Source: Leucoraja ocellata (lineage: Eukaryota). From it: 64,000 nt of DNA. The first letter of the stretch is position 1. The number at the start of each line of letters is the position of its first letter. The translations under genes were made by a program, and so were the position numbers. The notes under the pieces are model-generated. The model saw only the letters and a list, made by a program, of their open reading frames with translations. It ran no database searches and had not been told where the DNA came from. This document shows positions 4,688 to 43,774 of this stretch, one piece after another. Location: the NCBI GenBank assembly GCA_036785375.1, contig JAWMAR010000392.1, forward strand, positions 1,054,001 through 1,118,000. Direction: 5' to 3'.

Positions 4688-4822
4688 TCACCTGCGTTGC
4701 ACTCTCTGTGGCACAGCGTAGATAATGCCTGCGTCCTGATTATCTGATGTTGCTGGCCTGTTGGCCTTAGGAAGCTGGAGAAGGCAGTATGTGGTCTCAA
4801 CCGGTGAATCTAATTCCAGGGC
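4688..4822 (-). CDS. Exon 5 (terminal coding exon) with tyrosine signalling motifs
   Basis: Acceptor ctctccctgttcttcacag| in phase 0. Reads ALELDSPVETTYCLLQLPKANRPATSDNQDAGIIYAVPQRVQRR*. TTYCLL fits TxYxxL (ITSM) and IYAVP fits YxxP. Confidence 0.75.
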   Translation of the reverse strand, partial: ALELDSPVETTYCLLQLPKANRPATSDNQDAGIIYAVPQRVQRR

Positions 4823-6602: not shown

Positions 6603-6897
6603 AAATGCTTTTCAACGCTGTGATAGTACCTGCCTCATCTACCTCCTGTCTACAACTCATTCTATATACCTACCACCCTAGGTGTGAAAGTTGTCCCTCA
6701 GGATCTTTCCCCCCTCATCTTTAACCCGTGTCCTCTGGCTCTTGATATCCCAACTCTGGGTAAAAGACCGTACATTTATCTCTTCATGATCTGATGCACT
6801 TCTATAACATCATCTCTTATCCTGCTGCAATCCAATCCTGCTCAACCTCTCCCCACAACTCAGGCCCATGATTCCTGGCAACGTAAATATTCTCTGT

Positions 6898-7110
6898 GGT
6901 ACACAAAAATGCTGGAGAAACTCAGCGGGTGCAGCAGCATCTATGGAGCGAAGGAAATAGGCAATGTTTCGGGCCGAAACCCTTCTTCAGACTGCGGTTT
7001 CGGCCCGAAACGTTGCCCATTTCCTTCGCTCCATAGATGCGGCTGCACCTGCTGAGTTTCTCCAGCATTTTTGTGTACCTTCGATTTTCCAGCATCTGCA
7101 GTTCCTTCTT
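6898..7110. repeat. Palindromic (inverted) PLE terminal-repeat pair
   Basis: ggtacacaaaaatgctggagaaactcagc...gctgagtttctccagcatttttgtgtacc with ~85-bp arms. Similar structures at ~3980-4165, 9283-9465, 12123-12266, 13775-13956, 16160-16342, 19000-19145, 19907-20088, 21998-22184, 30160-30348 and 63330-63462. Confidence 0.8.
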
Positions 7111-7699
7111 AAATAAATTTTCTCTGCACCCATTTCTGCTTATTCATAATCATAATCGTAATTTATTAGCCAAGTATGTTTTGCAACATACGAGGGATTT
7201 GATTTGCCGTACAGTCATACCAAAAAACAGCAACAAGACACAAGAGGCTGCTGTCGTGTGGCGCCATCTGGTGGGGATCAACCCCAATAACAGGTCGACC
7301 AAAACTGAACACAACACTCCAAATGTGTTCTCAAGGAACATAACTTTCAAACTTCTATGTGTAGGAAGGAACTGCAGATGCTGGTTTAAACCAAACATAG
7401 ACACACAAAGCTGGAGTAACTCAGCGGGACAGGCAGCATCTCTGGAGAGAAGGAACGGGTGGAATAAATATATTCCTGTGAAATGTCAAGTGCTGCATCT
7501 CAGTAGCTCACAGCTCCACAGCTTCCTGTAAATGGCAACACAGGTAGACAAAGTAGTAAAGGAGGGGTATGGTATGCTTGCCTGCGTTGCACGAGCCATT
7601 ACGTATAAGAGTTGGGTCGTGCAGATTTGCATAATGCACCTTTATAGGACATTGGTTGATCTGCATTTGTAGTATTGCGTGCAGTTCTGGTCACCCCGT

Positions 7700-8337
7700 A
7701 CAGATATATTTTGGTGTTGCTCGTTCTTCACTGGCTCGTCTCCAGTTGGTTCAGAATGCTGCTGCTCGCCTTTTAACAGGGACTCAAAAGAGGGAGCACA
7801 TATCACCAATTCTAGCCTCCCTACACTGCCTCCCGGTGCACTTTCGGGTTCATTTTAAGATACTGTTATTTGTTTTTAAATCTCTGAATGGGCTCGCCCC
7901 GCCTTACCTCTCTGAGCTGCTCCACCCATACGCTCCTGCCCAGTCCCTCAGGTCAGCTGGTCAGCTGCTCCTGGAGGTACCGAGGTCTAGTCGGAGGCTC
8001 AGAGGGGATAGAGCCTTCTCTGTTGCTGCTCCGGCACTCTGGAACACCCTGCCGTTGCACATCAGACAGGCCCCCTCACTGTCCATCTTCAAATCCAGTG
8101 TTAAAACGCATTTTTACTCCCTGGCTTTTGACCATGCCTGAGGCTTTGCTTCTGTTTGTGGTGTTTTTGATGTTTCTTTATTTTACATGTCTTTTCCTAC
8201 TATTTCTTTTGATTGTTATTTTTGGTGTGTGTTAACTTTTTTGTCAATGATTAGTGATGTACAGCACTTTGTTGCAGCTATGTTTGTTTTTAAAGTGCTC
8301 TATAAATAAAATTATTATTATTGTTATTATTATTATA
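7700..8337 (+). mobile_element. L2 LINE 3' fragment (duplicate at 14579-15215)
   Basis: LQLVQNAAARLLTG...HISPILASLH(C/W)LPV...GLAPPYLSELL, then AATAAA and a (TAT)n tail. Confidence 0.85.
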
Positions 8338-8636
8338 TAATGTGGAGGCTTTGGAAAGGGCACAGAAGAGGTTTACCAGAACCAGCCTGAATTAGTGGGT
8401 AATGGCTATGAGTGTGTCATCCGTTTGAAGAAGAGTCTCGACCCAAAACGCCACCCATTCCTTCCCTCCAGAGATTCAAGATTCAAGAGAGTTTATTGTC
8501 ATGTGTCCCATATACTCCCTTTGCCTTCCAGATGCTAACATGTTTGGCCAAGGATGAGGGGTCATTTGGCACAATTGATGAAGCAGATTTTATTTTGCGA
8601 ATGATTTCTCCTCCCTCCAACCCACTGCCCACTTAC

Positions 8637-8716
8637 CTTGTTCAAGTCTTGCCGTGAAACTCTGTTAAACGCAACAAATCCTTCCGCGGCGTCCGACTTT
8701 CTCCTTCGATAATAAA
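8637..8716 (-). CDS. Exon 4, copy e
   Basis: Intact AG/GT; variant first codon, (I)YYRRRK... Confidence 0.55.
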
Positions 8717-10032
8717 CTGACATAAAACAATGAGATAGCAACAGGATTTCTAATTGTGCATTATCCAGAGTCTTACCAATTTGTAGCCATTAAATGAAGG
8801 AAGCAGGGCAGCACGGTGGTGCAGCGGTAGAGATACTGCCCTACAGCCCCAGGGACCTGGGTTCGATCCTGACTGCGGGTGCTGTCTGTACGGAATTTGT
8901 ATGTTCGCCCCGTGACCTGCACGGGTTTTCTCCAAGATCTTTGGTTTCCTCCCACACTCCAAAGATGGACAGGTTTGTAGGTTAATTGGCTTGGTATAAA
9001 TGTAAATTGTCCCGAGTGTGTGTAGGATAGTGGGAACATGATCAAAGTGGACTCAGTGGGCTCTAGGTGTGAAAGTTATCCCTCAGGATCTTTCCCCCCC
9101 TCATCTTTAACCCGTGTCCTCTGGCTCTTGATATCCCTACTCTGGGTAAAAGACGGTACATTTATCTCTTCATGGTCTGATGCACTTCTATAACATCATC
9201 TCTTATCCTGCTGCAATCCAAGCCTGCTCAACCTCTCCCCACAACTCAGGCCCATGAGTCCTGGCAAAGTAAATTTTCTCTGTGGTACACAAAAATGCTG
9301 GAGAAACTCAGCGGGTGCAGCAGCATCTATGGAGCGAAGGAAATAGGCAATGTTTCGGGCCGAAACCCTTCTTCAGACTGCGGTTTCGGCCCGAAATGTT
9401 GCCCATTTCCTTCGCTCCATAGATGCTGCTGCACCCGCTGAGTTTCTCCAGCATTTTTGTGTACCTTCGATTTTCCAGCATCTGCAGTTCCTTCTTAAAT
9501 AAATTTTCTCTGCACCCTTTTCTGCTTATTCATAATCATAATCGTAATTTATTAGCCAAATATGTTTTGCAACATACAAGGGATTTGATTTGCCGTACAG
9601 TCATACCAAAAAAAGGCAGCAAGACACACAAGAGGCTGCTGTCGTGTGGCGCCATCTGGTGGGGATCAACCCCAATAACAGGTCGACCAAAACTGAACAC
9701 AACACTCCAAATGTGTTCTCAAGGAACATAACTTTCAAACTTCTATGTGTAGGAAGGAACTGCAGATGCTGGTTTAAACCAAACATAGACACACAAAGCT
9801 GGAGTAACTCAGCGGGACAGGCAGCATCTCTGGAGAGAAGGAACGGGTGGAATAAATTTATTCCTGTGAAATGTCAAGTGCTGCATCTCAGTAACTCACA
9901 GCTCCACAGCTTCCTGTAAATGGCAACACAGGTAGACAAAGTAGTAAAGGAGGGGTATGGTATGCTTGCCTGCATTGCACGAGCCATTACGTATAAGAGT
10001 TGGGTCGTGCAGATTTGCATAATGCAGCTTTA

Positions 10033-10886
10033 CTAGGGGCGCTGCACTGGCAGCAGCCTCTACCTACAGCCTGTCTGTCATTTCCATCTTTTTTATTATT
10101 TTTAGTTAGTCTAAAGTCTGTTTTAGGAGGAAACTTTAACTTTTCTATGTGGGGGAGGGGGGCAGGGTAAGGGGGAAACCGTCTCCAAGTCTCTTCCTAG
10201 CGGGGACGCGACTATTTCTCCGAGTCGCGTCCTCGCCCCCACCTCGCGGCCTACCAGCTGGATCGGAGCGGCCTTTCCTGCCGGGGACCGGGATCCGGAC
10301 CAGGGCTGCTACAGTGGCGGCGCAGCGCTGGAGTCACCGCGGAGCGGGCGATACCTACCTGGGTCGCCGTTTGGACCTCCGGAGCGTTGGGCCGTTGCTC
10401 CAACATCGTGGAGCTCCGGTGCGGAGAGCTTCCAACGCGGGCGGCGCTGAACGGCATCGTGGAGTCCTGGGGCGCCTTGCAGAGGGCCTACAGCAGCAGT
10501 CTCCACCCGGCGCGGCCTGCGGACTTTGGAAGCCGCCGACTCCGGTAGGAGGGGGCCGACTCTGTGTCCATGCCACTGAGGACGTCCCGCAGCCCCGACG
10601 TCGGACTGGTATCATCCCGGCGAGCGGTCCTGGTCATCGGGCCGCCAGTAGCTGCAACTGCGGAGGGCTTGGGGAGACCCTGACCACGGGGAGCAGTGGA
10701 GGAAGAAGACTGACTTTGGTGCCTTCCCACACAGTGGGAAACTTTGATTCTGCTGTGTGGGGATGTTTTGTGTTAAATTCTATAGTGTGTTGAGTCCTGT
10801 TTATTTTTTTTGTATGGCTGTATGGGAATTCATTTCACTGTGCCATCTGGCACATGTGACAATTAAAATCTATCTATCTATCTATC
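10033..10886 (+). mobile_element. GC-rich non-autonomous retroposon with LINE-like 3' stem-loop and (TCTA)n tail (duplicate at 16910-17763)
   Basis: TTTA TSD relative to the empty site gcagctttatagg in the sister subunit. 3' hairpin gtgccatctggcac. Confidence 0.65.
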
Positions 10887-11251
10887 TTTATAGGACATTG
10901 GTTGATCTGCATTTGTAGTATTGCATGCAGTTCTGGTCACCCCTTACAGGTAGAATGTGGAGGCTTTGGAAAGGGCACAGAAGAGGTTTACCAGAACCAG
11001 CCTGAATTAGTGGGTAATGGCTATGAGTGTGTCATCCGTTTGAAGAAGAGTCTCGACCCAAAACGCCACCCATTCCTTCCCTCCAGAGATTCAAGATTCA
11101 AGAGAGTTTATTGTCATGTGTCCCATATACTCCCTTTGCCTTCCAGATGCTAACATGTTTGGCTAAGGAAGAGGGGTCATTTGACACAATTGATGAAGCA
11201 GATTTTATTTTGCAAATGATTTCTCCTCCCTCCAACCCACTGCCCACTTAC

Positions 11252-11331
11252 CTTGTTCAAGTCTTGCCGTGAAACTCTGTTAAACGCAACAAATCCTTCC
11301 GCGGCGTCCGACTTTCTCCTTCGATAATAAT
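11252..11331 (-). CDS. Exon 4, copy d
   Basis: Intact AG/GT; the peptide is visible within ORF 11177..11359. Confidence 0.55.
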
Positions 11332-12411
11332 CTGACATAAAACAATGAGATAGCAACATGATTTCTAATTGTGCATTATCCAGAGTCTTACCAATTTGTA
11401 GCCATTAAATGAAGGAAGCAGGGCAGCACGGTGGTGCAGCGGTAGAGATACTGCCCTACAGCCCCAGAGACCTGGGTTCGATCCTGACTGCGGGTGCTGA
11501 CTGTACGGAATTTGTATGTTCGCCCCGTGACCTGCACGGGTTTTCTCCAAGATCTTTGTTTCCTCCCACACTCCAAAGATGGACAGGTTTGTAGGTTAAT
11601 TGACTTGGTATAAATGTAAATTGTCCCTAGTGTGTGTAGGATAGTGGGAACATGATCAATGTGGACTCAGTGGGCCAAAGGGCCTGTTTCCGTGCTGTAT
11701 CTCTAAACTAAACTAAAACTAAACACAATACTTTAATGCTGGATTAATATGTTGCACATATAGAGCTTTTTTTATAGTAGATTTATAGTGGATATTGGTC
11801 ACTAATTTAGCCTCAGGGGTGCATAAAGAAATGGGGCCAGAGATGGATGAAGTGAAAGTGTGAGCCATTTGACAATTGGCAGCCAAAACGTGGTGAAATT
11901 CTCCAGATGCGGCACGGTGGCGCAGCGGTAGAGTTGCTGCCTCACAGCACCAGAGACGCAGGTTCGATCCTGACTACGGGTGCTGTCTGTTCGGAGTTTG
12001 TACGTTCTCCCCGTAACCTACGTGGGTTTTCTCCGAGATCTTCGGTTTCTTCCTACACTCCAATGACGAGCAGGTTTGTAGGCTAAATGTTCAAGCAGGA
12101 ACTGCAGATGCTGGAAGATCGAAGGTACACAAAAATGCTGGAGAAACTCAGCGGGTGCAGCAGCATCTATGGAGCGAAGGAAATAGGCGACGTTTCGGGC
12201 CAAAACCCTTCCTTCGCTCCATAGATGCTGCTGCACCCGCTGAGTTTCTCCAGCATTTTTGTGTACCCAGGTTTGTAGGCTAATTGGGTTGGTCAAATTA
12301 TAAAATTGCCCCTCCTGTGTGTAGGATAGTATTAGTGTGTGGGGATCGCTGGTCGTAGCGGGCTCGGTGCCGAAGAGCTTATCTCTAAGCTAAACTAAGC
12401 AGAGACCAGTC

Positions 12412-13349
12412 CATAGAGACAGAAACATAGAAATTAGGTGCAGGAGTAGGCCATTCGGCCCTTCGAGCCTGCACCGCCATTCAATATGATCATGGCTGAT
12501 CATCCAACTCAGTATCCCGTACCTGCCTTCTCTCCATACCCCCTGATCCCCTTAGCCACAAGGGCCACATCTAACTCCCTCTTAAATATAGCCAATGAAC
12601 TGGCCTCAACTACCCTCTGTGGCAGAGAATTCCAGAGATTCACCACTCTCTGTGTGAAAAAAGTTCTTCTCATCTCGGTTTTAAAGGATTTCCCCCTTAT
12701 CCTTAAGCTGTGACCCCTTGTCCTGGACTTCCCTAACATCGGGAACAATCTTCCTGCATCTAGCCTGTCCTTAAGAATTTTGTAAGTTTCTATAAGATCC
12801 CCTCTCAATCTCCTAAATTCTAGAGAGTATAAACCAAGTCTATCCAGTCTTTCTTCATAAGACAGTCCTGACATCCCAGGAATCAGTCTGGTGAACCTTC
12901 TCTGCACTCCCTCTATGGCAATAATGTCCTTCCTCAGATTTGGAGACCAAAACTGCACGCAATACTCCAGGTGTGGTCTCACCAAGACCCTGTACAACTG
13001 CAGTAGAACCTCCCTGCTCCTATACTCAAATCCTCTTGCTATGAAAGCCAACATACCATTCGCTTTCTTTACTGCCTGCTGCACCTGCATGCCTACCTTC
13101 AATGACTGGTGTACCATGACACCCAGGTCTCGCTGCATCTCCCCCTTTCCCAATCGGCCACCATCTAGCCTGTCCAACCCCTTAAGAATTTTGTAAGTTT
13201 CTATAAGATCCCCTCTCAATCTCCTAAATTCTAGAGAGTATAAACCAAGTCTATCCAGTCTTTCTTCATAAGACAGTCCTGACATCCCAGGAATCAGTCT
13301 AGTGAACCGTCTCTGCACTCCCTCTATGGCAATAATGTCCTTCCTCAGA
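12412..13349 (-). mobile_element. CR1 family B ((TTTCTATG)n tail), internally rearranged
   Basis: ORF 12509..13318 contains the QRRFTRLIPG...LDRLD segment twice. Confidence 0.85.
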
Positions 13350-15514
13350 TGTACAGGTTTAGCCCCAGATAGTGTGTGTGGGATAGTTTTAATGTGCAGG
13401 GATTGCAGTTGGGTACGGACTGGACTGAAGGGCCTGTTTCTGCGCTGTATTTCATAACAAAAAACTAAACTAAACTATCCAAATGCTTTTCAACGCTGTG
13501 ATAGTACCTGGCCTCATCTACCTCCTGTCTACAACTCATTCCGTATACCTACCACCCTAGGTGTGAAAGTTGTCCCTCAGGATCTTTCCCCCCTCATCTT
13601 TAACCCGTGTCCTCTGGCTCTTGATATCCCAACTCTGGGTAAAAGACTACATTTATCTCTTCATGATCTGATGCACTTCTATAACATCACCTCTTATCCT
13701 GCTGCAATCCAAGCCTGTTCAACCTCTCCCCACAACTCAGGCCCATGATTCCTGGCAACGTAAATTTTCTCTGTGGTACACAAAAATGCTGGAGAAACTC
13801 AGCGGGTGCAGCAGCATCTATGGAGCGAAGGAAATAGGCAACGTTTCGGGCCGAAACCCTTCTTCAGACTGTGGTTTCGGCCCGAAACGTTGCCCATTTC
13901 CTTCGCTCCAAAGATGCTGCTGCACCCGCTGAGTTTCTCCAGCATTTTTGTGTACCTTCGATTTTCCAGCATCTGCAGTTCCTTCTTAAATAAATTTTCT
14001 CTGCACCCTTTTCTGCTTATTCATAATCATAATCGTAATTTATTAGCCAAGTATGTTTTGCAACATACAAGGGATTTGATTTGCCGTACAGTCATACCAA
14101 AAACAGCAACAAGACACACAAGAGGCTGCTGTCGTGTGGCGCCATCTGATGGGGATCAACCCCAATAACAGGTCGACCAAAACTGAACACAACACTCCAA
14201 ATGTGTTCTCAAGGAACATAACTTTCCAACTTCTATTTGTAGGAAGGAACTGCAGATGCTGGTTTAAACCAAACATAGACACACAAAGCTGGAGTAACTC
14301 AGCGGGACAGGCAGCATCTCTGGAGAGAAGGAACGGGTGGAATATATTTATTCCTGTGAAATGTCAAGTGCTGCATCTCAGTAGCTCACAGCTCCACAGC
14401 TTCCTGTAAATGGCAACACAGGTAGACAAAGTAGTAAAGGAGGGGTGTGGTATGCTTGCCTGCGTTGCACGAGCCATTACGTATAAGAGTTGGGTCGTTC
14501 AGATTTGCATAATGCAGCTTTATAGGACATTGGTTGATCTGCATTTGTAGTATTGCGTGCAGTTCTGGTCACCCCTTACAGATATATTTTGGTGTTGCTC
14601 GTTCTTCACTGGCTCGTCTCCAGTTGGTTCAGAATGCTGCTGCTCGCCTTTTAACAGGGACTCGAAAGAGGGAGCACATATCGCCAATTCTGGCCTCCCT
14701 ACACTGGCTCCCGGTGCACTTTCGGGTTCATTTTAAGATACTGTTATTTGTTTTTAAATCTCTGAATGGGCTCGCCCCGCCTTACCTCTCTGAGCTGCTC
14801 CACCCATACGCTCCTGCCCGGTCTCTCAGGTCAGCTGGTCAGCTGCTCCTGGAGGTACCGAGGTCTAGTCGGAGGCTCAGAGGGGATAGAGCCTTCTCTG
14901 TTGCTGCTCCGGCACTCTGGAACACCCTGCCGTTGCACATCAGACAGGCCCCCTCACTGTCCATCTTCAAATCCAGTGTTAAAACGCATTTTTACTCCCT
15001 GGCTTTTGACCATGCCTGAGGCTTTGCTTCTGTTTGTGGTGTTTTTGATGTTTCTTTATTTTACTTGTCTTTTCCTACTATTTCTTTTGATTGTTATTTT
15101 TGGTGTGTGTTAACTTTTTTGTCAATGATTAGTGATGTACAGCACTTTGTTGCAGCTATGTTTGTTTTTAAAGTGCTCTATAAATAAAATTATTATTATT
15201 GTTATTATTATTATATAATGTGGAGGCTTTGGAAAGGGCACAGAAGAGGTTTACCAGAACCAGCCTGAATTAGTGGGTAATGGCTATGAGTGTGTCATCC
15301 GTTTGAAGAAGAGTCTCGACCCAAAACGCCACCCATTCCTTCCCTCCAGAGATTCAAGATTCAAGAGAGTTTATTGTCATGTGTCCCATATACTCCCTTT
15401 GCCTTCCAGATGCTAACATGTTTGGCCAAGGATGAGGGGTCATTTGGCACAATTGATGAAGCAGATTTTATTTTGCGAATGATTTCTCCTCCCTCCAACC
15501 CACTGCCCACTTAC

Positions 15515-15594
15515 CTTGTTCAAGTCTTGCCGTGAAACTCTGTTAAACTCAACAAATCCTTCCGCGGCGTCCGACTTTCTCCTTCGATAATAAA
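15515..15594 (-). CDS. Exon 4, copy c
   Basis: Intact AG/GT; variant reading (I)YYRRRKSDAAEGFVEFNRVSRQDLNK. Confidence 0.55.
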
Positions 15595-18128
15595 CTGACA
15601 TAAAACAATGAGATAGCAACAGGATTTCTAATTGTGCATTATCCAGAGTCTTACCAATTTGTAGCCATTAAATGATGGAAGCAGGGCAGCACGGTGGTGC
15701 AGCGGTAGAGATACTGCCCTACAGCCCCAGGGACCTGGGTTCGATCCTGACTGCGGGTGCTGTCTGTACGGAATTTGTATGTTCGCCCCGTGACCTGCAC
15801 GGGTTTTCTCCAAGATCTTTGGTTTCCTCCCACACTCCAAAGATGGACAGGTTTGTAGGTTAATTGGCTTGGTATAAATGTAAATTGTCCCGAGTGTGTG
15901 TAGGATAGTGGGAACATGATCAAAGTGGACTCAGTGGGCTCTAGGTGTGAAAGTTATCCCTCAGGATCTTTCCCCCCTCATCTTTAACCCGTGTCCTCTG
16001 GCTCTTGATATCCCTACTCTGGGTAAAAGACGGTACATTTATCTCTTCATGGTCTGATGCACTTCTATAACATCATCTCTTATCCTGCTGCAATCCAAGC
16101 CTGCTCAACCTCTCCCCACAACTCAGGCCCATGAGTCCTGGCAAAGTAAATTTTCTCTGTGGTACACAAAAATGCTGGAGAAACTCAGCGGGTGCAGCAG
16201 CATCTATGGAGCGAAGGAAATAGGCAATGTTTCGGGCCGAAACCCTTCTTCAGACTGCGGTTTCGGCCCGAAATGTTGCCCATTTCCTTCGCTCCATAGA
16301 TGCTGCTGCACCCGCTGAGTTTCTCCAGCATTTTTGTGTACCTTCGATTTTCCAGCATCTGCAGTTCCTTCTTAAATAAATTTTCTCTGCACCCTTTTCT
16401 GCTTATTCATAATCATAATCGTAATTTATTAGCCAAATATGTTTTGCAACATACAAGGGATTTGATTTGCCGTACAGTCATACCAAAAAAAGGCAGCAAG
16501 ACACACAAGAGGCTGCTGTCGTGTGGCGCCATCTGGTGGGGATCAACCCCAATAACAGGTCGACCAAAACTGAACACAACACTCCAAATGTGTTCTCAAG
16601 GAACATAACTTTCAAACTTCTATGTGTAGGAAGGAACTGCAGATGCTGGTTTAAACCAAACATAGACACACAAAGCTGGAGTAACTCAGCGGGACAGGCA
16701 GCATCTCTGGAGAGAAGGAACGGGTGGAATAAATTTATTCCTGTGAAATGTCAAGTGCTGCATCTCAGTAACTCACAGCTCCACAGCTTCCTGTAAATGG
16801 CAACACAGGTAGACAAAGTAGTAAAGGAGGGGTATGGTATGCTTGCCTGCATTGCACGAGCCATTACGTATAAGAGTTGGGTCGTGCAGATTTGCATAAT
16901 GCAGCTTTACTAGGGGCGCTGCACTGGCAGCAGCCTCTACCTACAGCCTGTATGTCATTTCCATCTTTTTTATTATTTTTAGTTAGTCCAAAGTCTGTTT
17001 TAGGGGGAAACTTTTACTTTTCTATGTGGGGGAGGGGGGCAGGGTAAGGGGGAAACCGTTTCTCAGCCTCTTCCTAGCGGGGACGCGACTATTTCTCCGA
17101 GTCGCGTCCTCGCCCCCCATCTCGCGGCCTACCAGCTGGATCGGAGCGGCCTTTCCTGCCGGGGACCGGGATCCGGACCAGGGCTGCTACAGTGGCGGCG
17201 CAGCGCTGGAGTCACCGCGGAGCGGGCGATACCTACCTGGGTCGCCGTTTGGACCTCCGGAGCGTTGGGCCGTTGCTCCAACATCGTGGAGCTCCGGTGC
17301 GGAGAGCTTCCAACGCGGCGGCGCTGAACGGCATCGTGGAGTCCTGGGGCGCCTTGTAGAGGGCCTACAGCAGCAGTCTCCACCCGGCGCGGCCTGCGGA
17401 CTTTGGAAGCCGCCGACTCCGGTAGGAGGGGGCCGACTCTGTGTCCATGCCACTGAGGACGTCCCGCAGCCCCGACGTCGGACTGGTATCATCCCGGCGT
17501 GCGGTCCTGGACATCGGGCCGCCAGTAGCTGCAACTGCGGAGGGCTTGGGGAGACCCTGACCACGGGGAGCAGTGGAGGAAGAAGACTGACTTTGGTGCC
17601 TTCCCACACAGTGGGAAACTTTGATTCTGCTGTGTGGGGATGTTTTGTGTTAAATTCTATAGTGTGTTGAGTCCTGTTTATTTTTTTTGTATGGCTGTAT
17701 GGGAATTCATTTCACTGTGCCATCTGGCACATGTGACAATTAAAATCTATCTATCTATCTATCTTTATAGGACATTGGTTGATCTGCATTTGTAGTATTG
17801 CATGCAGTTCTGGTCACCCCTTACAGGTAGAATGTGGAGGCTTTGGAAAGGGCACAGAAGAGGTTTACCAGAACCAGCCTGAATTAGTGGGTAATGGCTA
17901 TGAGTGTGTCATCCGTTTGAAGAAGAGTCTCGACCCAAAACGCCACCCATTCCTTCCCTCCAGAGATTCAAGATTCAAGAGAGTTTATTGTCATGTGTCC
18001 CATATACTCCCTTTGCCTTCCAGATGCTAACATGTTTGGCTAAGGAAGAGGGGTCATTTGACACAATTGATGAAGCAGATTTTATTTTGCAAATGATTTC
18101 TCCTCCCTCCAACCCACTGCCCACTTAC

Positions 18129-18208
18129 CTTGTTCAAGTCTTGCCGTGAAACTCTGTTAAACGCAACAAATCCTTCCGCGGCGTCCGACTTTCTCCTTCG
18201 ATAATAAT
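18129..18208 (-). CDS. Exon 4, copy b
   Basis: Same 80-nt exon with intact AG/GT, inside the tandem duplication. Confidence 0.55.
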
Positions 18209-21128
18209 CTGACATAAAACAATGAGATAGCAACAGGATTTCTAATTGTGCATTATCCAGAGTCTTACCAATTTGTAGCCATTAAATGAAGGAAGCAGGG
18301 CAGCACGGTGGTGCAGCGGTAGAGATACTGCCCTACAGCCCCAGAGACCTGGGATCGATCCTGACTGCGGGTGCTGACTGTACGGAATTTGTATGTTCGC
18401 CCCGTGACCTGCACGGGTTTTCTCCAAGATCTTTGTTTCCTCCCACACTCCAAAGATGGACAGGTTTGTAGGTTAATTGACTTGGTATAAATGTAAATTG
18501 TCCCTAGTGTGTGTAGGATAGTGGGAACATGATCAATGTGGACTCAGTGGGCCAAAGGGCCTGTTTCCGTGCTGTATCTCTAAACTAAACTAAAACTAAA
18601 CACAATACTTTAATGCTGGATTAATATGTTGCACATATAGAGCTTTTTTTATAGTAGATTTATAGTGGATATTGGTCACTAATTTAGCCTCAGGGGTGCA
18701 TAAAGAAATGGGGCCAGAGATGGATGAAGTGAAAGTGTGAGCCATTTGACAATTGGCAGCCAAAACGTGGTGAAATTCTCCAGAAGCGGCACGGTGGCGC
18801 AGCGGTAGAGTTGCTGCCTCACAGCACCAGAGACGCAGGTTCGATCCTGACTACGGGTGCTGTCTGTTCGGAGTTTGTACGTTCTCCCCGTAACCTACGT
18901 GGGTTTTCTCCGAGATCTTCGGTTTCTTCCTACACTCCAATGACGAGCAGGTTTGTAGGCTAAGTGTTCAAGCAGGAACTGCAGATGCTGGAAGATCGAA
19001 GGTACACAAAAATGCTGGAGAAACTCAGCGGGTGCAGCAGCATCTATGGAGCGAAGGAAATAGGCGACGTTTCGGGCCAAAACCCTTCCTTCACTCCATA
19101 GATGCTGCTGCACCCGCTGAGTTTCTCCAGCATTTTTGTGTACCCAGGTTTGTAGGCTAATTGGGTTGGTAAAATTATAAAATTGCCCCTCGTGTGTGTA
19201 GGATAGTATTAGTGTGCGGGGATCCCTGCTCGTAGCGGGCTCGGTGTGCCGAAGAGCTTATCTCTAAGCTAAACTAAGCAGAGACCAGTCCATAGAAACA
19301 GAAACATAGAAATTAGGTGCAGGAGTAGGCCATTCGGCCCTTCGAGCCTGCACCGCAATTCAATATGATCATGGCTGATCATCCAACTCAGTATCCCGTA
19401 CCTGCCTTCTCTCCATACCCCCTGATCCCCTTAGCCACAAGGGCCACATCTAACTCCCTCTTAAATATAGCCAATGAACTGGCCTCAACTACCCTCTGTG
19501 GCAGAGAGTTCCACAGATTCACCACTCTCTGTGTGAAAAAAGTTCTTCTCATCTCGGTTTTAAAGGATTTCCCCCTTATCCTTAAGCTGTGACCCCTTGT
19601 CCTGGACTTCCCTAACATCGGGAACAATCTTCCTGCATCTAGCCTGTCCAACCCCTTAAGAATTTTGTATGTTTCTATACCTACCACCCTAGGTGTGAAA
19701 GTTGTCCCTCAGGATCTTTCCCCCCTCATCTTTAACCCGTGTCCTCTGGCTCTTGATATCCCAACTCTGGGTAAAAGACTACATTTATCTCTTCATGATC
19801 TGATGCACTTCTATAACATCACCTCTTATCCTGCTGCAATCCAAGCCTGCTCAACCTCTCCCCACAACTCAGGCCCATGATTCCTGGCAACGTAAATATT
19901 CTCTGTGGTACACAAAAATGCTGGAGAAACTCAGCGGGTGCAGCAGCATCTATGGAGCGCAGGAAATAGGCAACGTTTCGGGCCGAAACCCTTCTTCAGA
20001 CGGCGGTTTCGGCTCGAAATGTTGCCCATTTCCTTCGCTCCTTAGATGCTGCTGCACCCGCTGAGTTTCTCCAGCATTTTTGTGTACCTTCGATTTTCCA
20101 GCATCTGCAGTTCCTTCTTAAATAAATTTTCTCTGCACCCTTTTCTGCTTATTCATAATCATAATCGTAATTTATTAGCCAAGTATGTTTTGCAACATAC
20201 GAGGGATTTGATTTGCCGTACAGTCATACCTAATATCTTGGCCTCCACAACGTCTGTGGCAATGAGTTCCACAGATTCACCACCCTGACTAAATGAATTA
20301 AGCAGTTTCTTACTCAACCATCTCATCTTCCCATCACCCACACTCTCCTCCCATCAGGTTCTCCCCCGCCCCTCTCCTCATTGCCATCTGCCCACCCAAC
20401 GTCTCTCCTTTGGTGAGAGGAATGGGTGACGATTTGGAACGAGACCCTTCTTCAGACCCCCATTCCTTCAATCCTGCCTGTCAGAGTTACTCCAGCGTTT
20501 TGTGTCTATCTTTGGCTTAAACCAGTATCTGCAGTTCCTTCCTACACCTTTCTCTTCTTTGGTCCCAGACACCACCATCCCTTCCCTTCCCATCTGATCC
20601 CATCATCTGCAACCCCTGGTCACCTCCATCATTCACATCCCACCCACCATTGTTATCACCATCCCTCTTTAACCCAGTTCAACTATATCCAGCAATCCAT
20701 CCCCTCCTCAACCTGGATCCACTGACCAGGTGCCACCTCTTTCCACCCCCCCACACCCTACTGGTTTTCCCCTCCCCACCCTGATAGTCCAGAGGAAAGG
20801 TCCCAACCCGAAATGTCGACTGTCCATTTCCTTCTCCTGATACTGCCTGACACGCTGAGTTCCTGCAGCTTCGGCACAAAATGCTGGAGCAACTCAGTGG
20901 GTCAGGCAGCATCTCTGGAGACAAGGAAGAGGTGACTATGTTTCGGGTTGAGACCCTTCTTCAGAAGCTCCAGCAGCTCAAATGTATACAACCAGAATCA
21001 CATTCACTCCCTTTGCCTTCCAGATGCTAACATGTTTGGCTAAGGAAGAGGGGTCATTTGACACAATTGATGAAACAGATTTTATTTTGCGAATGACTTC
21101 TCCTCCCTCCAACCCACTGCCCACTTAC

Positions 21129-21208
21129 CTTGTTCAAGTCTTGCCGTGAAACTCTGTTAAACGCAACAAATCCTTCTGCGGCGTCCGACTTTCTCCTTCG
21201 ATAATAAT
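21129..21208 (-). CDS. Exon 4, copy a (juxtamembrane cytoplasmic exon)
   Basis: Acceptor ttgttttatgtcag| and donor AAG|GTAAGT, 80 nt, phase 1 to 0. Reads (N)YYRRRKSDAAEGFVAFNRVSRQDLNK, with a basic stop-transfer cluster. Confidence 0.75.
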
Positions 21209-22330
21209 CTGACATAAAACAATGAGATAGCAACAGGTTTTCTAATTATGCATTATCCAGAGTCTTACCAATTAGTAGCCATTAAATGATGGAAGCAGGG
21301 CAGCACGGTGGTGCAGCGGTAGAGATACTGCCCTACAGCGCCAGGGACCTGGGTTCGATCCTGACTGCGGGTGCTGTCTGTACGGAATTTGTATGTTCGC
21401 CCTTGACCTGCATGGGTTTTCTCCAAGATCTTTGTTTCCTCCCACACTCCAAAGATGGACAGGTTTGTAGGTTAATTGGCTTGGTATAAATGTAAATTGT
21501 CCCTAGTGTGTGTAGGATAGTGGGAACATGATCAATGTGGACTCAGTGGGCCGAAGGGCCTGTTTCTGTGCTGTATCTCTAAACTAAACTAAAACTAAAC
21601 ACAATACATGAATGCTGGATTAATATGTTGCACATATAGAGTTTATTCTAGGTTTATGGAGGATATTGGTCACTAATTTAGTCCCAGGGGTGGATAAAGT
21701 AATGAAGGGGCCAGAGATGGATGAAGTGAAAGTGTGAGCCATTTGACAATTGGCAGCCAAAACGTGGTGAAATTCTCCAGATGCGGCACGGTAACACAGC
21801 GGTAGAGTTGCTGCCTTACAGCACCAGAGACGCAGGTTCGATCCTGACTACGGGTGCTGTCTGTTCGGAGTTTGTACATTCTCCCCGTAACCTACATGGG
21901 TTTTCTCCGAGATCTTCGGTTTCTTCCTACACTCCAATGACGAGCAGGTTTGTAGGCTAAATGTTCAAGCAGGAACTGCAGATGCTGGAAGATGGAAGGT
22001 ACACAAAAATGCTGGAGAAACTCAGCGGGTGCAGCAGCATCTATGGAGCGAAGGAAATAGGTGACGTTTCGGGCCGAAATCCTTCTTTAGTCTGAAGAAG
22101 GGTTTCGGCCCGAAACGTCGCCTATTTCCTTCGCTCCATAGATGCTGCTGCACCCGCTGAGTTTCTCCAGCATTTTTGTGTACCCAGGTTTGTAGGCTAA
22201 TTGGGTTGGTCAAATTATAAAATTGCCCCTCCTGTGTGTAGGATAGTATTAGTGTGCGGGGATCGCTGGTCGGAGAGGGCTCGGTGTGCCGAAGAGCTTA
22301 TCTCTAAGCTAAACTAAGCAGAGACCAGTC

Positions 22331-24921: not shown

Positions 24922-25056
24922 TCCTGAGGCCTTTGGTCAGCAGTATGGTCAAGCCAATGGTGATTAGGACAAGGAAAAGGGATGCGGGTATAACTGTATC
25001 CATCAGCCTGTTCCGCCCAGATCCTGTTGTAGTCGCGGAAGTGGAGGTGACACTTT
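24922..25056 (-). CDS. Exon 3: Ser/Thr-rich stalk plus transmembrane helix
   Basis: Acceptor ttttattacag| and donor A|GTAAGT, 135 nt, phase 1 to 1. Reads (E)SVTSTSATTTGSGRNRLMDTVIPASLFLVLITIGLTILLTKGLR. Confidence 0.8.
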
Positions 25057-27050: not shown

Positions 27051-27320
27051 CTGTCTCTGTGTGGTGATTGTAGACCGTTAATGTCACGGTGTCTTTCACG
27101 CTGCTGTTTCCGCCGCTGTAAACCGATATCTCGTACACTCCGCTGTCACTGCGCCGTAAATCCCGCAGTAACAGGGACCCATTCACGGGGTAGAGTTGGA
27201 CTCGCCCCGTGTGGGATGGACTGGTCGTCCAGCGAATTGAACAGTTACAACCGGGTCGGTCAGTGTGTGGAGGGCAGGTTACACAGAAAAGCTGGAGAAA
27301 CTCAGCGGGTGCAGCAGCAT
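27051..27320 (-). CDS. Exon 2: Ig V-set domain (C-terminal half native; 5' boundary uncertain)
   Basis: Reads ...HTGRVQLYPVNGSLLLRDLRRSDSGVYEISVYSGGNSSVKDTVTLTVYNHHTET, with V-set D/E/F/G strand motifs (GRV, NGSLxLxxL, DSGxY, TLTV) and no F-strand Cys. Donor G|GTAGGA is phase 1 at 27051. The start at 27320 uses the acceptor tttccttcgctccatag inside a PLE repeat (270 nt, open frame). Confidence 0.7.
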
Positions 27321-27735
27321 CTATGGAGCGAAGGAAATAGGCAACGTTTCGGGCCGAAACCCTTCTTCAGACTGATCGGGGGTGGGGGTGGGTCGGGACA
27401 AGAAAGGGAAAAGGAGGAGTAGCCAGAAGGCTGGAGGGTGGGAGGAGACAGTAGGGGAGCTGAGGAAGGGGAGGAGACAGCAAGGACTAACAGAATTGGG
27501 AGAATTCGATGTTCATGCCCCGGGGGTGTAGACTCCCCAAACGGAATATGAGGTGCTGTTCCTCCAATTTCCGGTGCTGCTCGCTGTGGCCATGGAGGAG
27601 ACCCAGGACAGAGAGGTCGGAGGCGGAGTGGGAGGGGGAGTTGAAGTGCTGAGCCACCGGGAGGTCAGCTTGGTTATTGTGGACCGAGCGGAGGTGTTCG
27701 GCGATGCTCCCCTACTGTCTCCTCCCACCCTCCAG
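27278..27735 (-). mobile_element. Penelope-like element 3' fragment: GIY-YIG C-terminal region plus terminal repeat with hammerhead motif
   Basis: Minus-strand frame at ~27703-27495 reads AEHLRSVHNNQADLPVAQHFNSPSHSASDLSVLGLLHGHSEQHRKLEEQHLIFRLGSLHPRGMNIEFSQF. Hammerhead core CTGAAGA...GAAACGTT at 27370-27343. Confidence 0.85.
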
Positions 27736-27741
27736 AGGCCA

Positions 27742-28990
27742 TGGAACAGGCCATGTCGACCCTTCTAGTCCGTGCCGAACACATAATCTCCCCTAGTCCC
27801 ATATACCTGCGCTCAGACCATAACCCTCCATTCCCTTCCCATCCATATAACTATCCAATTTATTTTTAAATGATAAAAACGAACCTGCCTCCACCACCTT
27901 CACTGGAAGCTCATTCCACACAGCTACCACTCTCTGAGTAAAGAAGTTCCCCCTCATGTTACCCCTAAACTTCAGTCCCTTAATTCTCATGTCATGTCCC
28001 CTTGTTTGAATCTTCCCTACTCTCAGTGGGAAAAGCTTTTCCACGTCAACTCTGTCTATCCCTCTCATCATTTTAAAACCTCTATCAAGTCCCCCCTTAA
28101 CCTTCTGCGCTCCAAAGAATAAAGCCCTAACTTGTTCAACCTTTCTCTGTAACTTAGTTGCTGAAACCCAGGCAACATTCTAGTAAATCTCCTCTGTACT
28201 CTCTCTATTTTGTTGACATCCTTCCTATAATTAGGCGACCAAAATTGTACACCATACTCCAGAATTGGCCTCACCAATGCCTTGTACAATTTTAACATTA
28301 CATCCCAACTTCTATACTCAATGCTCTGATTTATAAAGGCCAGCACACCAAAAGCTTTCTTTACCACCCTATCTACATGAGATTCCACTTTCAGGGAACT
28401 GTGCACAGTTATTCCCAGATCCCTCTGTTCTCCTACATTCTTCAATTCCCTACCATTTACCATGTACGTCCTATTTTGATTTGTCCTGCCAAGATGTAGC
28501 ACCTCACACTTATCAGCATTAAACTCCATCTGCCATCTTTCAGCCCTCTCTTCCAACTGGCATAAATCTCTCTGTAGACTTTGAAACTCTACATCATTAC
28601 CCGCAACCCCACCTATCTTAGTATCATCTGCATACTTACTAATCCAATTTACCACACCATCATCCAGATCATTGATGTACATGACAAACAACAGTGGACC
28701 CAACACAGATCACTGTGGCACCCCACTAGTCACTGGCCTCCAACCTGACAAACAACTATCCACCATTACTCTCTGGCATCTCCCATTCAGCCACTGTTGA
28801 ATCCATCTTGCTACTCCACCATTAATACCCAACCATTGAACCTTCTTAACCAACCTTCCATGAGGAACCTTGTCAAAGGCCTTACTGAAGTCCATATACA
28901 CAACATCCACTGCGTTACCCTCATCAATTTCCTGTGTAACATCTTCAAAAAATTCAAGAAGATTAGTTAAACATGACCTTCCAGGCACAA
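27742..28990 (-). mobile_element. CR1-A, RT to 3' end, with stop and frameshift
   Basis: ORFs 28710..28988, 28068..28706 (YADD) and 27793..28071. Confidence 0.9.
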
Positions 28991-32971: not shown

Positions 32972-33065
32972 CCGAGAGACAAACCCAAGTGGCGGCGAGG
33001 ATGAAAATGCCGGAGAAATCGTTTTCCCTGCGAGTTCTTCGCCGCGGTGTACGATTCTCGGACAT
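32972..33065 (-). CDS. Exon 1 (leader/signal peptide) of predicted CD2/SLAM-like Ig receptor
   Basis: ATG at 33065 reads MSENRTPRRRTRRENDFSGIFILAATWVCLS, followed by a G|GTAAGT consensus donor in phase 1. Basic n-region plus hydrophobic core, in a CpG-rich unique segment. Confidence 0.7.
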
Positions 33066-37310: not shown

Positions 37311-37584
37311 ACATGGCCGTCTGAAGGGGGGGTGCGTTGGGGTCCCACAGAGTAAGAAAAAATACCGAGGGAAATTTTTTTTTTTAATCGGAAAATAAAA
37401 ATCGGAAAAAGAATTTGGCTCGCGGGATAAGGGAGTGCCCATTTCTCCGGGCCCGGGGGGGGGGGACTGAATCTGAACCCAGCGGCTGTAACCCCAACAC
37501 CAGATGCCGCTGCGGTGGGGCCAGCTCCCCTTGCCTCCCCGCCTCCCCCTGCCGCCAGGGCCCAAGCCATCTTCCCCCCACACC

Positions 37585-38062
37585 AGCCCCGCTGGGCCCA
37601 CCCCACCCCTGCTGGCCCACGCCACCCCCACTGGGCCCAAGCTACCCCCGCTGGCCCACGCCACCCCCGCTGGGCCCACGCCACCCCCGCTGGGCCCACG
37701 CCACCCCCGCTGGCCCACACCACCCTCGCTGGGCCCAAGTCGCCCAAGCTGGGCCACGCCACCCCCGCTGGGCCCACACCAGCCACGCTGGGCCCAAGCC
37801 ACCCATGCTGGGCCCACGCCATGCCCACTGGGCACAAGCCACCCCCGCTGGGCCCACACCACCCTAACTGGGCCCACGCCACCCCCGCTGGGCCCACGCC
37901 ACCCCCACTGGGCCCACGCCACCCCCGCTGAGCCCACACCACCCCCGCTGAGCCCAAGCCTCTCCCGCTTGGCCCACACCACCCCTGCTGACCCCATTGG
38001 GCCCACGCCACCCCCGCTGACCCCCACTGGGCCCACGCCACCCCAGCTGGGCCCACGCCACC
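37585..38062. repeat. GC-rich minisatellite, ~20-21-bp unit CCCCGCTGGGCCCACGCCACC
   Basis: About 22 tandem degenerate units, producing spurious long ORFs in most frames. Confidence 0.9.
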
Positions 38063-41957: not shown

Positions 41958-43262
41958 TTGTATCACTATTGCTCTATCTATCTTTCCCTCTCAAACACAT
42001 TCTCCTGCCTTCTCCCCGTTACCTCTGACCCCCGTATCAATCAAGAATCTATCAATCTCCTCCTGAAAAATGTCCATATTCTCCGCAGATGCTGCCTGTC
42101 CCACTGAGTTACTCCAGCACTTTGTGTCTATTTTCCCTTCACCCACCTGCCCAAGCCCACTCTCCCCCCTCCTTTCCTATTGTCCTTTCCACCCATAAAC
42201 CTCTCTCTGCCTTTACATTTCACTCCTCTTTCAATTAAGAAAAGGGGAGATGCAACGAGGCCTGGGTGTCATGGTACACCAGTCATTGAAAGTAGGCATG
42301 CAGGTGCAGCAGGCAGTGAAGAAAGCGAATTGTATGTTAGCATTCATAGCAAAATAATTTGAGTCTAGGAGCAGGGAGGTTCCTATTTTGACTACTCCTG
42401 CACCTATTTTCTATGTTTCTATGTTTCTAAATCTGCTTTACTTATCTACATGCATTTTCCTTCTTAACACTAACATAGAATGATGCAGTGTGGAAACAGG
42501 CCCTTCAGCCCAACTTACCCACACCGACCGACATGTCCCATCTAAACTAGTCCCACTCACACGCGTTTGGCCCATATCCATCTAAATCTGTCCTATCCAT
42601 GTACGTGTCCAAATGTCTCTTAAACATTTTGATAGTCCCAGTCTTAACTACCTCCATACACCCAGCACCCTTTGTGTGAAAAGGCTACCTCTCAGATTCT
42701 TGTTAATTTCTGAAATATTGGTCATAAATTTGGTGCAAAAATGCTCCAAAATAAGGCTCAGAATGCATCAGAGAGCTTTTAAAACCCCAGAGCTTGGCAT
42801 TGAGGTAGTTCACGCTTCGTGCTCATGATGTGTGCAGCGCGCACACTATTTCACATTAAATTTTTGTAATCCTGTCATGCCACCCCCCTTTTTGAAAGCT
42901 TCGTACGGGCCTGAATTACAGGACTAAAACTGCACACAAGACTCCAGGTGTGGTCTCATTAGGGCTCTGTACAACTGCAGAAGGATGTATTTGCTCCTAT
43001 TCTCAACTCCTCTTCATGCCATTGGCTTTCTTCACTGCCTGCTGTACCTGCATGCTTACATTCATTGACTGATTAACAAGGTCCCCCAGATCCCTTTGTA
43101 CTTCCCCTTTTCCCAACTTGACACCATTTAGATAGTAAACTGCCTTCCTGTTTTGCTACCAAAGTGGATAACCTCACATTTATCCTCATTAAACTGCATC
43201 TGCCATGCATCTGCCCACTCACCCAACCTATCCAAGTCATCCTGCATTCTCATAGCAATGCT

Positions 43263-43774
43263 ATAGGGTGATTTCACCAAAGGTCAAATGAGCGTAGATC
43301 CCCCCTCACGTGACCGAAAATTTTAACTGGAGGACATATGTCAGATCGGTACATGTTAGTGAATGGGGAAACACGCACTTTCCCACCCGTTAAAAACATG
43401 GAAAACGGCCGATTTTTGAGCTGAAATTTTCTGTGCTAGTCGGGGTGACCGTGAAGCACAGCGACCTAAATTTTCAGGCAAAAAAAAAGATAGAAAGTAA
43501 GGTAATTACAAGAGGGAACTGAAGGTAGAAAACAGCGGAAGTGAACAGCTGACATTTGCCGTGGAGATTTTAAGATCCAAAATATCGGGAATTATCGCGT
43601 TTGCTCGCTGAATTTCATCAAAAGTAAAGCATTATTAACTTACTTTTGATGAAATTCAGCGAGCAAACGCGATTCACTAACATGTACCGATCTGACATAT
43701 GTCCTCCAGTTAAAATTTTCGGTCACGTGAGGGGGGGATCTATGCTCATTTGACCTTTGGTGAAATCACCCTAT
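43263..43774. mobile_element. MITE-like non-autonomous element with ~102-bp TIRs and an internal 34-bp perfect hairpin
   Basis: 43263-43364 is the reverse complement of 43672-43774. Hairpin arms at 43594-43627 and 43640-43673. Confidence 0.8.

Follow-up and report, generated by a model that had tools for sequence, protein, structure and literature searches.

The 64,000-nucleotide stretch of Leucoraja ocellata DNA considered here (assembly GCA_036785375.1, contig JAWMAR010000392.1, hereafter C392, positions 1,054,001 to 1,118,000), which we call the window, holds on its minus strand a gene that, judged by its sequence, is a skate single-IgV, transmembrane, immune-type receptor gene with immunoreceptor tyrosine-based inhibitory motif (ITIM)-like motifs. 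Its short cytoplasmic exon, exon 4, is repeated five times, and its IgV exon, exon 2, has lost its splice acceptor and 5' half (Table 1). Since the host gene has lost half of its IgV exon, we consider the exon copies to be probably tolerated debris of local duplication in a recently broken, decaying receptor gene, and not a selected switch.

The five copies (a-e) were recovered by a scan of every 80-nt segment of the plus strand allowing at most 20 mismatches, and a search of the whole assembly for exon 4 returned the same five places only (5/5 candidates). All five share the length of 80 nt and the phase 1 to 0, and at each the 25-nt acceptor (…ttttatgtcag) and the donor AAG/gtaagt are identical, so that the five intact copies reported by the first-pass annotation were confirmed, together with the alternation of N and I at the first residue and the A/E change in copy c. 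Because the gene lies on the minus strand, the order in the transcript is e, d, c, b, a; copy e, the first, has the most diverged flanks. The copies are 97.5-100% identical and differ by at most two residues. Variable sites number 3/80 in the exon against 22/468 in the flanks, a comparison of low power, and two of the three exonic ones change a residue; conservation is no higher in the copies than in the flanks around them, and they bear no sign of selection. Five is a secure copy number for the assembly, not for the animal.

Table 1. Features of the receptor gene and its exon-4 array (positions in the window)
Feature	Position	Strand	Basis or remark
Exon 1, coding part (leader), phase-1 donor gtaagt	32972-33065	-	matches homologue P0003 1-31 and P0004
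SINE (short interspersed element) and LINE (long interspersed element) fragment at the exon-2 break	27280-28990 (upper end approximate)	.	sequence, reverse-transcriptase-like frame, acceptor scan
Exon 2 remnant, IgV 3' half	27051-27279	-	tblastn of five homologues; without acceptor and ~57 codons
Exon 3, stalk and transmembrane helix, phase 1 to 1	24922-25056	-	40/44 residues identical to Amblyraja P0001
Palindromic repeat, intron before copy e	21964-22187	.	complementary to elements at 19903, 16157, 13771, 9280, 6894 (one after each copy)
Exon 4, copy e	21129-21208	-	2 mismatches vs a; first residue N; one synonymous change
Exon 4, copy d	18129-18208	-	1 mismatch vs a; first residue N
Exon 4, copy c	15515-15594	-	1 mismatch vs a; first residue I; A>E
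Exon 4, copy b	11252-11331	-	1 mismatch vs a; first residue N
Exon 4, copy a	8637-8716	-	0 mismatches (reference); first residue I
Exon 5, coding part, TTYCLL and IIYAVP motifs, stop, phase 0	4688-4822	-	
Second arm, youngest duplication (copies c, d)	13481-19679	.	entered through LINE-to-SINE junction near 13350
First arm, youngest duplication (copies a, b)	6603-12794	.	98.8% identical to 13481-19679, offset 6878

In tblastn alignments, five homologues match exon 2 solely from the codon at 27276 onward, so that the acceptor and about 57 codons (P0004 33-89) are missing and the remnant covers positions 66-109 of the 109 of the Pfam V-set domain. According to the alignment and a structure model of P0004, the lost part comprises strands A, A', B, C and most of C', including the invariant W73. 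The lost half is absent from the window and from the gene in the assembly; a query with the 5' exon-2 half of a paralogue led to four candidate places, all of them paralogues or fragments (4/4) and none at the host gene. An inversion carrying the lost half to C392:1129.5 kb was rejected as well, given that the fragment there measures 69 nt and best matches the P0003 type, and that exon 1 has kept its orientation. In run X1, one contig of short reads, 376 nt long and with 0 differences, extends 20 nt beyond the break into the SINE, short of the 31 nt that served as bridging threshold for contigs; it argues against a mis-join, yet its support is not independent, because X1 may be the source sample of the assembly.

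Two in-frame detours around the lesion are conceivable, namely skipping of exon 2 (exon 1 to exon 3) or use of a cryptic acceptor at 27320, where the antisense SINE (27280-27345) offers a pyrimidine-rich, stop-free, in-frame site and thus a possible case of exonisation. Neither route, the second giving a half domain, would yield a folded IgV domain. The first-pass annotation had assumed that the host encodes an inhibitory receptor that is intact, and its alternative of a decoy falls together with that premise: with the acceptor and 5' half of exon 2 gone, there is likely no folded ectodomain left to signal or to bind a ligand. In the CEACAM literature, an N exon without splice acceptor led to the gene being scored as a pseudogene (PMC5112662). 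The tail motif needs correction too, for what was called an ITSM exon (after the tyrosine-based switch motif of immunoreceptors) carries TTYCLL, of the form TxYxxL, and not the strict ITSM, given as TxYxxV/I in the same paper; at the corresponding site of the homologues a strict ITSM occurs in 0/7, an ITIM in 5/7 and TxYxxL in 2/7.

We modelled in silico all 32 choices of exon-4 inclusion. With no copy, an 8-residue tail results; with exactly one (5/5 choices), exon 5 is read in frame and a 71-residue tail with both motifs is made; with two or more (26/26 choices), a stop is met in the second copy. The frame arithmetic of the first-pass annotation is therefore right, and the loss of both tyrosine motifs does follow wherever at least two copies are spliced in. 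Transcripts with two copies (10 choices) would, however, keep a 51-residue tail, which is not the tail-less product that had been proposed, and their stop stands 5 nt before the last junction; with three, four and five copies (10, 5 and 1 choices) it stands 85, 165 and 245 nt before it. Nonsense-mediated decay (NMD) generally takes effect on stops lying more than 50-55 nt upstream of the last junction. If exon 5 is the last exon, the predicted NMD targets are thus the transcripts with at least three copies, while the two-copy transcript, previously counted among them, likely escapes. Forced mutual exclusion, also suggested earlier, finds nothing in the sequence that would impose it. The introns between the copies measure 2534-4183 nt and are all GT-AG with identical sites, and this rules out two of the routes listed in PMC6071210, steric block by a very short intron and mixed U2/U12 sites. 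RNA runs X15-X20 gave shares of 0.05-0.17, which a 620-nt LINE piece in the query could explain.

How the array arose can be read from its surroundings. The copies are spaced 2.6-4.3 kb apart, each within a block of about 550-730 nt that is repeated five times, and the larger units around these blocks hold intron DNA with both shared and private transposons. Over 548 nt of the block, 2 differences separate a from c and another 2 separate b from d, while the pair a/c departs from the pair b/d at 11-13 sites and e from all the rest at 15-16; from these differences we derive an older round that produced three types (e, b/d and a/c, about 2-3.4% apart) and a recent 6.9-kb duplication that doubled a and b (0.4% apart). 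Exon 4 has been multiplied as a passenger of tandem duplications that are nested and 2.6-6.9 kb in size. The arms of the youngest one differ by 58 substitutions and 9 gaps, and 11/27 of the transitions between them fall at CpG, though CpG makes up 6% of sites. This suggests real mutations, in a pattern that fits paralogues and alleles alike.

The number of copies in the animal is a separate matter, on which two explanations had to be weighed. Possibly, though we hold it to be rather doubtful, the animal is heterozygous for the 6.9-kb duplication, or the assembly has over-expanded it, and three copies are what the usual allele bears, a view that touches only the count and is compatible with decay of the gene. 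In its favour, the contig depth of X1 on duplicated blocks (23.8, 19.5, 19.1) relative to single-copy stretches (11.7, 13.9, 10.3) is about 2.0-, 1.6- and 1.6-fold, nearer to the prediction for three copies (1.66-1.78, 1.47, 1.46-1.52) than for five (2.64, 2.48, 2.38), where one copy would give 1; but contig depth is not a copy number, the contigs come from a set of just 24 out of about 480,000 pieces, and the extent of the third was inferred from end distances. The X1 contig on exon 5 was excluded from the baseline, as 3/5 of its differences match a distant orphan exon 5. The close agreement of a with c and of b with d points the same way, whereas the number of differences between the 6.9-kb arms speaks against it, as does the junction near 13350, where a LINE runs into the interior of a SINE, a one-off junction that an assembler would seldom invent and that suggests that a five-copy molecule does exist. 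Reads and contigs over the whole array are swamped by repeats and few pieces are usable; in the raw-read run X21, 23 reads were placed on the array, all on repeats. Read depth, proposed earlier as a check on the array, hence sustains more than one copy but leans weakly to three, or to a heterozygote, over five. That the entire array is an assembly artefact, the animal having one exon-4 copy, appears extremely improbable. One contig each of X1, X2 and X4 does pass unbroken from the copy-e-specific flank into the exon, as a single-copy locus would give; at 21097 and 21177, however, these contigs have the letters of a-d, and they stop at 21235 and 21207, just short of the copy-discriminating sites. 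Moreover, three copy types with 11-16 substitutions per 548 nt, differing transposon neighbours and differing junctions, as well as the raised depth of the duplicated blocks, are hard to ascribe to one copy.

The array could be a working or nascent mutually exclusive cluster, in which repeat arms compete for one upstream partner, NMD clears multi-copy transcripts and the share of full tails is tuned, though this seems improbable to us. In a simple model, the single palindromic element before copy e can pair with an element behind any one of the five copies, at a predicted gain of 57-60 kcal/mol over a pair of local hairpins, in an arrangement resembling the docking/selector layout that PMC6071210 proposes as an origin of mutually exclusive splicing; the stop of transcripts with at least three copies lies 85-245 nt before the last junction, and relatives (Rhinoraja, Mobula) do use a duplicated tail exon. 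Yet looping alone would, from the positions, leave one copy in just 1/5 pairings, that behind copy b; the element is a frequent repeat (14 copies; the window has 584 inverted pairs), and every copy has a predicted self-folding energy of -156 to -181 kcal/mol; choice among copies would gain nothing, as they differ by at most two residues; and the switch would sit in a gene with a broken IgV exon. With the Dscam type of cluster and with FGFR2 IIIb/IIIc, the array shares homologous exons that stand in tandem and agree in length and phase, intronic arms that might compete and, according to PMC6071210, the capacity of NMD to clear double inclusion; it differs in that the exon copies are undiversified, the flanks equally conserved and the pairing arms common transposon-derived repeats. 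Highly improbable, in our estimate, is a cluster caught at birth, whose transposon arms and NMD would let a polymorphic exon copy number set the inhibitory-tail share on alleles with a whole or a SINE-replaced IgV exon; if true, it would show mutually exclusive splicing starting from transposon arms, and exon copy number tuning an inhibitory receptor. The tuning of inhibitory signalling by copy number that the first-pass annotation envisaged is supported by none of our results. We also regard as unlikely an expressed membrane protein with no ectodomain or half a domain, which the array would turn into a product that lacks the motifs but has its own function. Exon 1 can be joined in frame both to exon 3 and to the SINE acceptor, and the two-copy transcript, likely escaping NMD, would give the 51-residue tail; a decoy, however, requires the ligand-binding domain that is lost here, and the copies lack any mark of selection.

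Debris in a decaying gene has observations of its own to contend with. Exons 1, 3, 4 and 5 keep open frames and intact splice sites and match Amblyraja at 35/44 to 25/26 residues, so that any decay must be recent. The host is the sole gene in the assembly carrying exons 3 and 4, exon 3 being single-copy across the assembly, and consequently has no back-up copy. In X4 and X6, contigs go on beyond 27277 for 33-151 letters that differ from the window, the behaviour expected of an unbroken exon, and may show that such an exon exists there, in an orthologue or a paralogue; the X1 contig, for its part, misses the bridging rule and may stem from the assembly's own sample, and the two in-frame bypasses of exon 2 would keep a protein possible. 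That exon 4 is present once in the annotated protein of all 9/9 homologues carrying it counts in favour of decay, but annotated proteins would hide extra out-of-frame copies. Finally, both neighbouring paralogues show 1-bp shifts, several of them in homopolymers, which may be assembly errors.

On the reading of decay, which we still prefer, nested tandem duplications carried exon 4 along inside the receptor gene; as the splice sites are strong and identical and the introns run to kilobases, several copies would by default be included and translation would stop in the second, degradation by NMD would follow with three copies or more, and any protein made, through exon-2 skipping or the SINE acceptor, would have no foldable ectodomain. 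Either lesion, the break of exon 2 or the array, may have come first. The short-tail form was already open to a single-copy ancestor by skipping exon 4, and since the copies differ by at most two residues, they add no useful new protein.

The closest relatives are unnamed proteins of skates, rays and sharks, led by Amblyraja LOC116990025 with 89% over the exon-2 remnant. The products of this gene and of Rhinoraja LOC144602877, Pristis LOC127586104 and Mobula LOC134346691 are built as here from leader, IgV, transmembrane, exon-4 and motif segments, but the IgV domain is whole in 13/13 aligned relatives, in contrast to the half IgV and five exon-4 copies of the window gene. The motif segment of exon 5, with its limits in relatives inferred from the window gene, occurs twice, in frame, in Rhinoraja and the two Mobula species but once in Amblyraja, Pristis and two sharks (P0004, P0006-P0009). 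Motif number, judged from these predicted proteins, is variable in the elasmobranch single-IgV receptor family, and Rhinoraja and Mobula show what a useful, in-frame tail duplication looks like. Among the gene models, the Amblyraja one (P0001) starts with a reverse-transcriptase domain instead of a leader and the Mobula isoform P0007 has a LINE-like insert in its tail, both likely annotation artefacts; the Mobula isoform P0009 has no transmembrane segment.

In the alignment the family IgV, of V-set fold, has no conserved cysteine in strand B or F. The CEACAM N domain likewise has no B-F disulfide, a trait found also in CD2/SLAM and HepaCAM domains. An invariant cysteine pair (C90/C101 in P0004 numbering) stands around the C'-C'' loop and recurs in an unnamed pigeon protein, P0013. 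Sequence matches of P0004 in the PDB are CEACAM N domains in 10/11 cases, weakly and over about 40-60 residues; a profile search ranks JAML first, the second rank in the Atlas is a CEACAM19 cluster, and fold matches include PD-L1, TIGIT and others at 15-21% identity. The family cannot be firmly named, and seems, on sequence comparison, to be an as yet unnamed group of elasmobranch receptors whose tail is ITIM-like. Synteny was of no help: the HSL_N profile sought for LIPE had no match anywhere in the assembly, and 0/10 Porin_3 matches, a set that may hold VDAC as well as TOMM40, lay on C392. A literature search, whose scope left most subscription papers outside, found nothing on the elasmobranch single-IgV family or the locus; a CEA-like expressed sequence tag from little skate is reported in PMC4079198.

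CEACAM1 offers a close parallel in splicing. According to PMC2490704, skipping of its 53-nt exon 7 gives a short tail of 12-14 residues, so that there (53 nt) as here (80 nt) a short cytoplasmic exon with a length not divisible by three fixes the frame in which the tyrosine motifs are read, and skipping leads to a short tail (8 residues here). In CEACAM1, however, one exon is skipped, as shown by RNA, whereas in the skate the exon is multiplied, the IgV is broken and the case is known from sequence alone.

The rest of the contig shows the same habit of duplication. An orphan exon 1 at C392:861.7 kb (L040 1710-1814) and an orphan exon 5 at C392:401.6 kb (L045 9580-9750), both inverted, have no partner exons within the 40 kb fetched, and each has an open frame and lies within about 2 kb of duplicated sequence (94-97% identity). 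Four IgV fragments are also present on C392, and paralogues, orphans and fragments occur in both orientations; from the orphan exons and fragments we conclude that pieces are copied in this region whether or not the frame is kept. The short-tailed Leucoraja LOC129716097 type is represented by two paralogues, at C392:1122.8-1136.3 kb (L021-L022) and C392:790-800.6 kb (L030-L031), one with an intact IgV exon and a shifted transmembrane exon, the other with both exons shifted. Elsewhere in the window we noted a GC-rich minisatellite at 37577-38062 (20-nt unit, 24.5 copies) and, at 43262-43773, apparent inverted ends (CTATAGGGTGATTTCACCAAAGG), possibly of a small DNA transposon as judged by eye.

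Birth-and-death clusters of the Ig superfamily contain the same paralogues, orphan exons and fragments, and nothing essential differs here, apart from the chance presence of a frame-shifting exon in the unit that is repeated. The locus would then represent ordinary decay in a duplication-prone Ig-receptor cluster, and it warns against taking intact splice sites in duplicates this young as evidence of function. At the same time, it provides a natural test of the spliceosome facing five identical frame-shifting exons.

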